A DNA stretch of 64,000 nucleotides, taken from UHGV virus genome UHGV-0171999; one strand, given 5' to 3'. This stretch comes from a virus. This document shows, piece by piece, positions 2,806-33,771 of this stretch; the stretch's first letter is position 1, and each line of letters begins with the position of its first letter. Below the pieces are notes generated by a model. It was not told the origin of the DNA and made no database searches. It saw nothing but the letters and a program-made list of their open reading frames with translations. The position numbers and the translations under genes were made by a program.

Positions 2806-3518
2806 ATGAAACTAATCTTTTTAAGCGGTGTAAAGCGTAGTGGAAAAGATACCACTGCTGATTTTATTATGAATAATTATTTTGCAGTTAAATATCAACT
2901 TGCTGGTCCGATTAAAGATGCACTAGCCTATGCGTGGGGTGTATTTGCATCAAACACCGTTCATCCTTGCTTAACTCGTAAAGAGTTTGAAGGAATTGAC
3001 TATGATCGTGAAACTAATTTAAATCTGACTAAATTAGAAGTAATTACGATTATGGAACAAGCATTTTGCTATCTTAATAATAAAAGCCCAATTAAAGGTG
3101 TGTTTGTTTTTGATGACGCAGTTAATTTCGTAGCATTTAACAAGATTGCTGACGTTATAAATAATATTGAAGATCAATGGTCAGTCCGTCGTCTGATGCA
3201 AGCCCTAGGTACGGATTTGATTGTTAATAACTTCGACCGCATGTATTGGGTAAAATTATTTGCTTTAGATTATCTTGATAAATTTAACTCAGGTTATGAT
3301 TATTATATCGTTCCTGATACTCGTCAAGATCATGAAATGGATGCGGCTAGGGCGATGGGTGCTACAGTAATTCATGTAGTTCGTCCTGGTCAAAAATCCA
3401 ATGATACTCATATTACAGAAGCTGGATTGCCAATTCGTGATGGCGATTTAGTAATTACAAACGATGGTTCTCTTGAAGAACTTTTTTCTAAAATTAAAAA
3501 TACACTAAAGGTACTATA

Positions 3519-3519
<1 letters not shown>
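2806..3519 (+). CDS. 1: deoxynucleoside monophosphate kinase gp1
   Basis: N-terminus MKLIFLSGVKRSGKDTTADF (P-loop) and length match remembered T4 gp1. Confidence 0.9.
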
Positions 3520-4216
<697 letters not shown>

Positions 4217-4228
4217 TTTCACAAAGTT

Positions 4229-4258
4229 GTTTACACGTTGATGAGGTAGTGATACTAT
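4229..4258 (+). promoter_or_regulatory. T4 early promoter
   Basis: GTTTAC, 18-nt spacer, TACTAT; upstream of ORF 4289. Confidence 0.6.
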
Positions 4259-4288
4259 TATCTCATCAAAATTAATTAGGAAAATAAA

Positions 4289-4603
4289 ATGAAAACTTTC
4301 AAAGAATTTACTTCTACAACTACCCCGGTTTCTACTATTACTGAAGCTACTCTTACTTCTGAAGTTATTAAAGCAAATAAAGGACGAGAAGGTAAACCAA
4401 TGATTAGTTTGGTTGATGGTGAAGAAATCAAAGGTACTGTTTACCTAGGCGATGGATGGTCTGCTAAAAGGATGGTGCTACAATCGTTATCTCTCCTGCT
4501 GAAGAAACTGCGTTGTTTAAAGCTAAACACATTTCTGCGGCACATCTCAAGATTATTGCTAAAAATCTTTTGTAATAAATATTTCACAAAGTTGTTTACA
4601 TAG
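4289..4603 (+). CDS. ipI-locus internal-protein-like gene with capsid-targeting-like leader; apparent frameshift near 4466
   Basis: N-terminus MKTFKEFT...ITEA resembles IP capsid-targeting leader; after about residue 60 the frame runs into junk through the next promoter, while another frame reads DGATIVISPAEETALFKAKHISAAHLKIIAKNLL to a stop near 4575. Confidence 0.5.
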   Translation: MKTFKEFTSTTTPVSTITEATLTSEVIKANKGREGKPMISLVDGEEIKGTVYLGDGWSAKRMVLQSLSLLLKKLRCLKLNTFLRHISRLLLKIFCNKYFTKLFT

Positions 4604-4623
4604 GGTTTTAGTTGTGATACTAT
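4594..4623 (+). promoter_or_regulatory. T4 early promoter
   Basis: TTTCACAAAGTTGTTTACA...TACTAT consensus. Confidence 0.6.
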
Positions 4624-4651
4624 TACCCTATCAACTACCGAGGAGAATAAA

Positions 4652-4837
4652 ATGAAACGTTGTGAATTAATTCGAAATGTTGCTATTGCAATTTCTGCTT
4701 CTGCTTTTAGTTTTTCAATGTTTGTTGGATTTATATGCGGATTATTAACTACAGCAGAAAACGTTTTTTCACTTGTAGTAGCATTTTTAATTGGTTTAAT
4801 TGCTATCGTTATGGATAAAATTTCTAAAGGTGAATAG
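4652..4837 (+). CDS. small hydrophobic membrane protein
   Basis: 61-aa ORF with GAGGAG Shine-Dalgarno; predicted transmembrane segments. Confidence 0.55.
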   Translation: MKRCELIRNVAIAISASAFSFSMFVGFICGLLTTAENVFSLVVAFLIGLIAIVMDKISKGE

Positions 4838-4838
4838 A

Positions 4839-5219
4839 ATGTACAAAGTGTATGCGGATTATCAGGCTAATCCATCTGAAAAGCCAGGTTGTCAAATTGG
4901 ATGGGCTCATGATACTTTGCTTGAAGCAGTAGATGCTGCTCAAAAATTGGGATATAAATATGTAGAGATTGTTCAACCGTCAGGAAAAGTTATTACTCTT
5001 GAAGAGTTCAATAACATTAAACCAAACTTTTTACTTTTTGCAGGTGATAATTATTATCCTCGTGGTGGATATGCTGATTTAATAGCGAAAGCCGCTACCG
5101 AAGATGAACTCCGTGACATTATCAAAGAAAATGAAAACAAACCAGATTATGGTTCTAATCGCTTTGATTGGTGGCAAATTGTAAATGCCAATACGCACAC
5201 TATTGTTGATGAAGGTTGA
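4839..5219 (+). CDS. hypothetical protein
   Basis: ATG MYKVYADYQ... with AAAGGTGA Shine-Dalgarno; 126 aa. Confidence 0.55.
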   Translation: MYKVYADYQANPSEKPGCQIGWAHDTLLEAVDAAQKLGYKYVEIVQPSGKVITLEEFNNIKPNFLLFAGDNYYPRGGYADLIAKAATEDELRDIIKENENKPDYGSNRFDWWQIVNANTHTIVDEG

Positions 5220-5221
5220 TA

Positions 5222-5509
5222 ATGATTCTTTATGCGAAAGTATCGTCCGTTGAAAATGGATATAAATATGATCAAGAAGCAGCTAAAGCCTTGATTGATG
5301 ATTATGGCATTTTAACATATTTTGAAGTTGAAAAGGTTTACATTGACCGTTCATCTTCTCAAGTTAAATTAGTGAAGGAAGACCGTAAATTTAACACAGT
5401 AAATTTTGATTTCTTTATTGAAACAGAAAAAGGTCCTCTTGAATATGATATTTTCAAGAATCCTTTGGGTCTTGAATGCATCGTAAATATGTATTATCAT
5501 AAATGGTAA
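5222..5509 (+). CDS. hypothetical protein
   Basis: ATG MILYAKVSS... after GAAGG; 95 aa. Confidence 0.5.
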   Translation: MILYAKVSSVENGYKYDQEAAKALIDDYGILTYFEVEKVYIDRSSSQVKLVKEDRKFNTVNFDFFIETEKGPLEYDIFKNPLGLECIVNMYYHKW

Positions 5510-5606
5510 ATATGCTTTAAGAATTATTTGTTATTATTAACTCATATCGCACTGATTAATACCCTCTATCATCAAGGGTTCTTGCTTGAGAGCCTTTGTT
5601 AATAAT

Positions 5607-5679
5607 TGGGAATTAGCCAAGTTGGTAAGGCACTGGATTTTGATTCCAGGATGCAAAGGTTCGAGTCCTTTATTCCCAG
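5607..5679 (+). tRNA. tRNA-Gln (anticodon UUG)
   Basis: Manual cloverleaf: acceptor TGGGAAT/ATTCCCA, anticodon loop TTTTGAT, T-loop TTCGAGT. Confidence 0.8.
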
Positions 5680-5680
5680 C

Positions 5681-5767
5681 GCGAGAATGGTCAAATTGGT
5701 AAAGGCACAGCACTTAAAATGCTGCGGAATGATTTCCTTGTGGGTTCGAGTCCCACTTCTCGCACCA
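5681..5767 (+). tRNA. tRNA-Leu (anticodon UAA), long variable arm, encoded CCA
   Basis: Acceptor GCGAGAA/TTCTCGC, anticodon loop CTTAAAA, long extra arm. Confidence 0.8.
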
Positions 5768-5772
5768 AATTT

Positions 5773-5846
<74 letters not shown>

Positions 5847-5856
5847 ATTTAATTTA

Positions 5857-5931
5857 CTCCGTGTAGCTCAATGGCAGAGCGATCGCCTGTTAAGCGATTG
5901 GTTATAGGTTCGAATCCTATCACGTCCGCCA
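5857..5931 (+). tRNA. tRNA-like gene, anticodon GUU (Asn-type), acceptor stem mismatched as read; possible pseudo or chimeric tRNA
   Basis: Clean D-arm, anticodon arm (loop CTGTTAA) and T-arm (GGTTCGAATCC), but 5' CTCCGTG vs 3' CACGTCC leaves top three acceptor pairs unpaired. Confidence 0.45.
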
Positions 5932-13394: not shown

Positions 13395-13757
13395 ATGAAA
13401 GCATATCAAATTCTTGAAGGCACGCATAAAGGTACTATTTATTTTGAAGACGGTATTCAAGCACGAATTATTGTATCTAAAACCTTTAAAGAGGACTCTT
13501 TTGTAGACCCAGAAATTTTCTACGGTTTGCATGCCCGTGAAATTGAAATTGAAACACAACCTACAGTTAAAATTGAGGGTGGTCAACACCTGAACGTTAA
13601 CGTTCTGCGTCGCGAAACTCTGGAAGATGCAGTTAAGCATCCGGAAAAATATCCGCAGCTGACCATCCGTGTATCCGGTTATGCAGTTCGCTTTAACTCT
13701 CTGACTCCGGAACAGCAGCGCGACGTTATTGCTCGTACCTTTACCGAGAGTTTGTAA
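13395..13757 (+). CDS. autonomous glycyl-radical cofactor protein (GrcA/YfiD-like)
   Basis: C-terminal glycyl-radical motif [15 protein letters not shown]; GAGAGG Shine-Dalgarno. Confidence 0.7.
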
Positions 13758-25986: not shown

Positions 25987-26334
25987 ATGAAAACTCGTTC
26001 TCAAATTGAAGATATGGTTCGTAATGCCAGCTATACTCGTGATGTTATGACATTTTTGTGTCAAAATAATTTAGACCCTGATAAAGTTAATCGTGATATT
26101 CACTTTAAATATATGAATAGCAGTGAATGGTTACGTCATTTTAGTAAAGCGGGGTATATTACACAAATGACTGCTCGTGAGCAGCTCACCGATTTCTGTA
26201 AAACTATTGATTATAAAAATCCTCTATTTGTTCAGGCGTTGGTCAGAGTAAGGTTGATTTATCATCTGGATTTTTTAATCCAAATCATTATCGTATTGAA
26301 TGGAGATTTATTGCTCTATTCCGTAAACAATTAA
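25987..26334 (+). CDS. 5' portion of an apparently frameshifted gene
   Basis: Protein-like to about residue 95, then junk (LDFLIQIIIVLNGDLLLYSVNN); shift near a T-run around 26271. Confidence 0.45.
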   Translation: MKTRSQIEDMVRNASYTRDVMTFLCQNNLDPDKVNRDIHFKYMNSSEWLRHFSKAGYITQMTAREQLTDFCKTIDYKNPLFVQALVRVRLIYHLDFLIQIIIVLNGDLLLYSVNN

Positions 26335-26417
26335 AGCAAATTTTATCAACTGCGAGTCGATTAAAAGGTTCTGATATTAACTTAAAGAACCTGAAATTTG
26401 ATGGTTATACTCTTCAG

Positions 26418-27317
26418 ATGGAAGTAAGACCATTAAAAGAAAATAATAGAACTGCACGAATTAGCTTTAAACCTAATACAAAAAATTCTCTTTCAATTTG
26501 CGAATGCCTTAAATCGCAGTTGACAGAAGCATTTAAGTATATGGATGTTGTTGCCGCTGTTCAGTCTAAGATTTTACCTCGTTTTGAGCGATTTAAATTA
26601 GACACAACAACATATGAACTTGATATGATCGTTTCATTTAAATACGATTTTTTGAGAAAGGATGAAGTCCCGCAAGAGAAAAAGCAGGAAGTGCAAGATA
26701 ACTTAAATTTAAATTTATCTAATTACTCATCAAACGATCCTAAATTTTGGATGTATAGTTCAGGTAATGAGGATGCATGGAAATTCAATAAAGTGAATAT
26801 GCTTTTTAAGCATGCTCGCAAATTATTTACCGCGGGTGATGACCGTACAAATACAGTTCATGTTAAGGACTGGGTTATTGCTGATGAAGTAACACATAAG
26901 CCAGGTGGTTCATCAGTGTTAATTAATATCCAGGTTCCTTATTATTACTCACGTAATCTCGGCACCATGAACTCTAGAGAAATTAATAAGCACAACAAAA
27001 CTATTCGTTCGTTGTCTTATAAACTCCGCATGATGTTAAAAATCATGGACGTAGTGGAAATGTATGACGAAACCGAAGATAATGGTTCAATGTTATACAG
27101 CTCACGCATTCTAATTAAACTGAAGAACCCTAATACATACAAGCCAGTTGTAAAAGAACCTAAAGTAGAAAAGGTTGATAACCTGAGCGAAGAACGCGAA
27201 TATCTTAATGCTCGCTTAATTGAAGTTGAAAAACAGATTGAAGAGCATACTAAAGTTCTTAAAGATTTAACTGCCAAAGCAAATGGTTTACGTAATGCTA
27301 TTGAGGTATTAAAATGA
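26418..27317 (+). CDS. 3' portion of an apparently frameshifted gene, C-terminal coiled coil
   Basis: Frame is open and protein-like from about 26217 with no start codon or Shine-Dalgarno until the ATG at 26418. Confidence 0.45.
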   Translation: MEVRPLKENNRTARISFKPNTKNSLSICECLKSQLTEAFKYMDVVAAVQSKILPRFERFKLDTTTYELDMIVSFKYDFLRKDEVPQEKKQEVQDNLNLNLSNYSSNDPKFWMYSSGNEDAWKFNKVNMLFKHARKLFTAGDDRTNTVHVKDWVIADEVTHKPGGSSVLINIQVPYYYSRNLGTMNSREINKHNKTIRSLSYKLRMMLKIMDVVEMYDETEDNGSMLYSSRILIKLKNPNTYKPVVKEPKVEKVDNLSEEREYLNARLIEVEKQIEEHTKVLKDLTAKANGLRNAIEVLK

Positions 27318-33700: not shown

Positions 33701-33771
33701 TAACATTCTGTATATTACCATTCTAACTATCGTTCCCTTCTTATCATTCCCTAAAATAATTTCACAAAGTT

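Follow-up and report, generated by a model that had tools for sequence, protein, structure and literature searches.

The internal protein IpI of bacteriophage T4 is packaged into the phage head at approximately 360 copies by means of an N-terminal propeptide (PMC3012670, PMC9026906, PMC12373910), the role of which in capsid targeting has been described (PMC9026906). The prohead protease trims IpI, and the mature form, IPI*, is injected together with the DNA and inhibits GmrS/GmrD (GmrSD), a type IV restriction enzyme of Escherichia coli CT596 (PMC3012670, PMC9026906, PMC12373910). Mature IPI* consists of 76 residues in a compact fold, with two beta sheets flanked by N- and C-terminal helices, and this compact fold was reported as required for inhibitor activity (PMC3012670). 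The GmrSD variant that is blocked differs among T4 Ip1, Ip2, and Ip3 (PMC12373910), and ipI is dispensable except on hosts carrying the GmrSD of CT596 (PMC9026906, PMC12373910). Laboratory ipI-null mutants of T4 (Black and Abremski 1974; the IP0 triple amber phage) were viable on ordinary hosts and restricted on CT596 with GmrS/GmrD (PMC9026906, PMC12373910). For IPIII, ca. 10 N-terminal residues were enough for packaging, and foreign sequences joined behind such propeptides were packaged as well (PMC9026906).

The open reading frame (ORF) examined in our study lies in a 64,000-nt stretch of the virus genome UHGV-0171999 (the window, meaning that whole stretch), a T4-like (Tequatrovirus) segment in the opposite orientation to the standard T4 map. 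The ORF occupies positions 4289-4603, following the genes for dNMP kinase (gene 1; 2806-3519), 57A (3519-3761), and 57B (3761-4216) and preceding a tRNA.4 homologue (4652-4837). The order dNMP kinase, 57A, 57B/Acb1, ipI, tRNA.4 is that of T4-like records, and the ORF was confirmed to lie where ipI does, behind 57A/57B and ahead of tRNA.4 and the tRNA cluster, and to have an early promoter of its own. The early-promoter cassette 5' of ipI (4216-4259, plus strand) combines a 20-nt repeat (ATTTCACAAAGTTGTTTACA, 4216-4235) with an extended -10 element (GTGATACTATT, 4249-4259), with a promoter-like match at 4230-4258. A second cassette on the same strand (4581-4624) serves the tRNA.4 homologue and has the 20-nt repeat at 4581-4600 and GTGATACTATT at 4614-4624; its promoter-like site, at 4595-4623, reads TTTACA-17-TACTAT with a TG extension. 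In phage SA21RB, the annotation places T4-type early promoters at the positions homologous to both cassettes. The two cassettes are near-identical and bracket ipI, and similar CA(C/T)AAAGTTGTT motifs were also observed near 33763 and 63901, in intergenic regions rich in indels. It has been proposed that genes at the hypervariable ip locus are shuffled through repeated promoter cassettes of this kind. The neighboring 57B ORF gave a Pfam match (203 bits) to Acb1, an anti-CBASS cyclic-nucleotide phosphodiesterase; in RefSeq relatives, this gene is called "RNA ligase" or "hypothetical protein".

The coordinates of the 104-aa ORF, from the ATG at 4289 to the TAG at 4601-4603, were confirmed from the sequence. 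A Shine-Dalgarno-like AGGA (4278-4281; plus strand, as are all features of the ORF given below) was read 7 nt 5' of the ATG and is the same in phages Kha5h and SA21RB. Codons 1-19 (4289-4345) encode MKTFKEFTSTTTPVSTITE, a capsid-targeting propeptide identical to that of the T4 IpI precursor, which ends at the prohead-protease site ITE/A and is followed in the ORF product by ATLTSEV. The chain of PDB entry 2JUB starts at residue 20 with ATLTSE, in agreement with the initial annotation, which had recognized an internal-protein type of leader (MKTFKEFT...ITEA). Codons 20-60 (4346-4468) encode residues 1-41 of mature IPI* in frame, identical to residues 1-41 of 2JUB. The last in-frame codon is codon 60 (AAA, 4466-4468), and it begins a run of four A (A4; 4466-4469) that was identified as the site of a one-base deletion by alignments with relatives, in which the run has five (A5). 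The frame break had been placed near codon 60, at the A-run at 4466-4469, and an A4 run was found at exactly those coordinates.

Beyond the run, the ORF was translated as an out-of-frame tail (4469-4603) of 44 aa followed by TAG, RMVLQSLSLLLKKLRCLKLNTFLRHISRLLLKIFCNKYFTKLFT, which contains 13 Leu and 10 Lys/Arg and overruns the original stop. The frameshift product is predicted to read GDGWSAK-R-MVLQSLSLLLK at the junction. This Leu/Lys-rich tail, which had been described as low-complexity sequence reaching to 4603 through the next early promoter, enters the -35 element of the promoter-like site at 4595-4623, and its TAG falls inside that element. The original frame, from K61 to L95 and its TAA, is stranded at 4468-4575, where the adjacent frame codes KDGATIVISPAEETALFKAKHISAAHLKIIAKNLL (K-DGATIVISPAEETALFKAKHISAAHLKIIAKNLL when read from 4468) and terminates at 4573-4575, ahead of that promoter-like site; the stop near 4575 had likewise been noted. 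This alternative frame is not a chance reading, because it is identical (100%) to the C-terminal 35 residues of T4 IPI*, residues 42-76. Internal restart within the stranded frame, which would make a C-terminal fragment, was also considered and rejected. The stranded frame is closed on its upstream side by a TAA at 4465-4467 and is without ATG or GTG, and its sole candidate start, the TTG of Leu75, had no Shine-Dalgarno-like sequence seen before it.

Adding one A to the run turned the ORF into a 95-aa protein with 100% identity to the T4 IpI precursor (X03016.1, KJ477684.1), and residues 20-95 of this repaired protein correspond to mature IPI* (PDB 2JUB) with 100% identity. The Pfam family IPI_T4 (PF11634) matched the repaired protein over all of its profile (positions 1-76 of 76, 180 bits) and the ORF as it stands over positions 1-42 of 76 only (94 bits). 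The locus was thereby identified as ipI by descent, while the test for a whole 76-residue domain failed, and an intact member of the family is not encoded. A megablast search with positions 4200-4660 matched 542 phage records, the best of which aligned 461 query bases with 462 record bases, and alignment with Kha5h, SA21RB, IME339, and UFV13 placed the sole indel in the gene at one missing A, A5 to A4. Judged by protein identity and gene order, the ORF is the orthologue of phage T4 ipI.

These results supported the earlier view that an internal-protein gene occupies the ipI locus, since the repaired protein is the T4 IpI precursor and the synteny agrees. The alignment that the initial annotation had proposed, of the corrected protein to internal proteins of T-even phages, returned identity with T4 IpI, and its suggestion of a new internal-protein gene was contradicted by the 100% identity over all 95 residues; the gene is canonical ipI itself rather than merely similar to an internal-protein gene. 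The expectation that one extra A would yield a clean protein of about 94 aa was borne out for the frame and corrected for the size, which is 95 aa. Compared with T4 IpI/IPI*, the locus between 57B and tRNA.4, the flanking early promoters, the propeptide, and the cleavage site are common to both. The gene differs from T4 ipI by 8 synonymous nucleotide changes and by the A lost from codons 60-61, through which residues 42-76 of IPI* are replaced by 44 unrelated residues.

The A4 allele was an outlier among the relatives. A 66-nt probe centered on the run matched 105 phage records, none at 99% identity, and all 30 of the full-length matches listed from these 105 records span 67 record bases, corresponding to A5; A5 was present in all phage relatives examined. 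An ipI homologue was found in 291 records; in 282 of these, at least 80% of the query is covered at one place. From the nine partial records, two tblastn matches were inspected: IME339 has a leader variant and MRostami-2023e a run of Ns, with no frameshift in either. Scans for the exact A4 pattern returned no match in IMG/VR (32-nt and 22-nt patterns), in the JGI metagenomes, or in the GTDB genomes, and the only contigs found to encode the exact 104-aa product are identical to the window. Against Kha5h the repaired gene shows 3 nucleotide differences and against SA21RB 4, and all of these, like the 8 from T4, are synonymous; in the 106 nt after the run there are no differences from T4, Kha5h, or SA21RB. 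This pattern indicates that ipI was under purifying selection until the frameshift. Because the stranded C-terminal frame shows no decay, the loss appears to be very recent, although an artefact would leave the downstream frame just as undecayed as a very recent event would. Also encountered was a partial but intact IpI of the T4 type (68 aa; WP_411429804.1, MFP9035268.1), which is not the frameshift form; its 2.4-kb contig carries the label Enterococcus faecalis at NCBI, probably through T4-like phage contamination of the assembly.

The identical A4 sequence was present in three assemblies: ENA ERZ28629209 (PASO19-1_SAMN09781698 scaffold_6, 167,058 bp), ENA ERZ1035044 (NODE_3_length_167000_cov_45.6, 167,000 bp, labelled cov 45.6), and Logan SRR7658682_312 (51 kb). 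They agree base for base and may share one read set. The label "PASO19", read together with Pasolli et al. 2019 (Illumina NexteraXT, Madagascar cohort), may point to the human gut as the origin of the phage and to an Illumina platform. The whole window was audited against phage UFV13, which is ca. 96% identical. A total of 401 homopolymer runs could be aligned (343 of 5, 56 of 6, and 2 of 7 bases), and a length change was found in one of the 343 runs of 5, the ipI A5, and in none of the 58 runs of 6-7. Among the 151 UFV13 ORFs with matches, only ipI and the nrdC.5 homologue were split by frame, and no stop-codon interruption of a real gene was found in the window in comparison with these 151 ORFs. 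No frameshifted essential gene was found in the 64-kb window. The other indels that are not multiples of three, judged from sequence context, adjoin stop codons, ribosome-binding sites, or promoters, or fall in a divergent stretch (5018-5881) that reaches the tRNA cluster.

The nrdC.5 homologue carries a one-base deletion (TTCAAGG to TTCAGG) in an AA dinucleotide at approximately 26234, and its locus (25987-27317) is split into ORFs at 25987-26334 and 26418-27317. The extra base was present in 488 of 488 matched phage records, the deletion is unique to the window, and it was reproduced in the Logan assembly. In addition, a deletion of approximately 1.7 kb (junction at about 26782-26804) joins nrdC.5 to the nrdC.3 homologue and removes nrdC.4; the fusion junction was absent from all 492 matched records. 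Frame-breaking indels in conserved ORFs of the 64 kb were confined to ipI and nrdC.5, both of which are counter-defence genes.

The initial annotation had left a choice among a sequencing error, a recent pseudogene, and a slippage-dependent gene, of which the recent pseudogene became the best supported. If one A had been dropped in the reads or in consensus calling, the phage would truly be A5 with an intact ipI, and much of what was observed would follow from this: A4 is unique among all relatives, the change sits in a homopolymer, the classic site of indel errors, and a perfect repaired gene with zero downstream decay is exactly what an error would look like. The three assemblies may also stem from one sample, in which case a read error would have propagated to all of them. 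However, the assemblies are identical, with one labelled cov 45.6, and their concordance makes an assembler artefact unlikely. Homopolymer-prone chemistry would fail first on the longest runs and would strike essential genes, that for DNA polymerase among them; the audit found neither, and systematic homopolymer error is therefore unlikely. Furthermore, the nrdC.5 base was lost from a dinucleotide, beside a unique 1.7-kb deletion that is impossible as a base-calling error, and these unique nrdC.5 deletions indicated that genes of this class do carry real lesions private to the phage. The case for a sequencing error was weakened by the concordant assemblies and the clean audit and is now a rather small one, and a real one-base deletion is, on the sequence evidence, likely. 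Of the explanations considered, the best, and probably the correct one, is that a dispensable counter-defence gene has recently turned into a null allele.

A real A4 run could still be compatible with an active gene if authentic IpI were made by recoding. Either tRNA-Lys would slip by -1 at U AAA AGG while the rare AGG occupies the A site, or RNA polymerase would add an A at the run. If the frame moved by -1 after AAA, the next codons would be AAG GAU and the product exactly the wild-type protein; the junction peptide SAKKDGATIVISPAEETALFK is predicted in this recoded product, and the downstream frame is perfectly kept. Transfer RNA-Lys is prone to shifting, and AGG is a rare codon in E. coli. 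Programmed -1 sites of the dnaX type (A AAA AAG with a downstream stem-loop) have in common with the ipI junction an A-run decoded by tRNA-Lys at the point where the frames meet, but the ipI junction is without the heptameric slippery motif, the downstream structure, and the conservation of such sites. The site U AAA AGG does not conform to the X XXY YYZ heptamer: slipping by -1 would leave the P-site tRNA-Lys on UAA, mismatched at the first position, and the AGG-reading tRNA on AAG, whereas an easier +1 slip onto AAA would lead into a dead frame, KGWCYNRYLSC followed by a stop. No stimulatory RNA structure was detected in the fold of 4455-4580 (-22.4 kcal/mol; mean of the shuffles, -20.55; z = -0.62), the 110 nt downstream being no more stably folded than their shuffles, and the arrangement is not conserved, as the relatives examined all have A5 in frame. 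AGG starvation is relieved by the tRNA-Arg(UCU) that T4-type phages themselves encode. For appreciable slippage, bacterial RNA polymerase needs runs of ca. 8-9 or more A or T, and the run here, with only 4 bases (4466-4469), is far below that length. With no slippery heptamer, downstream structure, or conservation, and with so short a run, the proposal of a slippage-dependent gene did not hold, and recoding is highly improbable. A selected new injected effector, made up of the propeptide, half of IPI*, and the Leu/Lys-rich amphipathic tail in a 104-aa protein, was another way in which the frameshift could be functional. The capsid-targeting propeptide and cleavage site are intact, foreign sequences behind such propeptides are packaged (PMC9026906), and the tail is basic, as in other internal proteins. 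On the other hand, the tail is what results when a sequence shared, nucleotide for nucleotide, with the intact ipI genes of other phages is read out of frame, so that nothing in it was shaped by selection; the allele occurs in one phage population only, and the ORF ends only on running into promoter sequence. Such neofunctionalization accordingly seemed a very faint prospect. An allele that is leaky rather than null, in which an occasional -1 slip gives a little IpI while half-IPI* with the basic amphipathic tail is packaged and injected, is very unlikely. If it were true, the hypervariable ip locus would offer a natural case of dose tuning or of a newly emerging injected protein.

Under the preferred reading of a recent null allele, a wild, metagenome-assembled Tequatrovirus would have lost one A from the A5 in codons 60-61 of ipI. 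Translation from the normal start would then yield the propeptide, IPI* residues 1-41, and 44 unrelated residues, and the second half of the compact IPI* fold, including the C-terminal helix, would be lost. The truncated product would probably still be targeted to the capsid, because the propeptide and cleavage site are kept and ca. 10 N-terminal residues suffice for IPIII. It is predicted to be inactive as a GmrSD inhibitor, because IPI* residues 42-76 are missing and the compact fold was reported as required (PMC3012670). The A4 allele would thus be null or nearly null, and the loss of ipI would be tolerated because the gene is needed only on hosts with a matching GmrSD; the loss may well have been neutral. 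Growth of the A4 phage is predicted to be normal on most E. coli strains, with restriction in hosts that carry a CT596-type GmrSD. The same phenotype as in the laboratory ipI-null mutants would be expected, but those carry amber or selected mutations, whereas a spontaneous frameshift in an uncultured metagenome phage is at issue here. Nothing about the gene, the product, the structure, or the target is new, and there is nothing unusual in a dispensable gene losing one base; a real, very recent, and ordinary loss of a dispensable gene is most likely what the window records. For annotation, the 104-aa "protein" on these contigs is better flagged as a disrupted ipI.

T4 nrdC.5 was reported to counter the Dsr1 defence system (PMC9391042). 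Srikant, Guegler and Laub (2022, eLife; PMC9391042) showed that dispensable anti-defence genes (ipIII, nrdC.5, and rII) are readily lost from T4 without selection and that the host range narrows. Dispensable anti-defence genes were lost there, and the lesions here affect ipI and nrdC.5. Their losses were large deletions that compensated for gene amplification in the laboratory, whereas point deletions and one 1.7-kb deletion in a natural population were found in our study. By carrying unique lesions in ipI (anti-GmrSD) and nrdC.5 while the other conserved ORFs of the 64 kb, replication and structural ones included, are intact, the phage fits a fast turnover of anti-defence genes according to the hosts that were recently met, a fit that was drawn post hoc from two events.

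The two ENA assemblies (167,058 bp and 167,000 bp) are linear contigs that are permuted differently, as expected for the circularly permuted, terminally redundant genome of a T4-type phage. The ends of scaffold_6 map near window position 13,600, with a discrepancy of ca. 42 bp. In two further metagenome contigs, ERZ724095 NODE_1 (353 kb) and ERZ27239000 k119_54599, the ung, trmJ-like, and grcA region of E. coli abuts T4-like vs.6 (GrcA-like) and downstream phage genes; both contigs are probably assembly chimeras formed via grcA homology.
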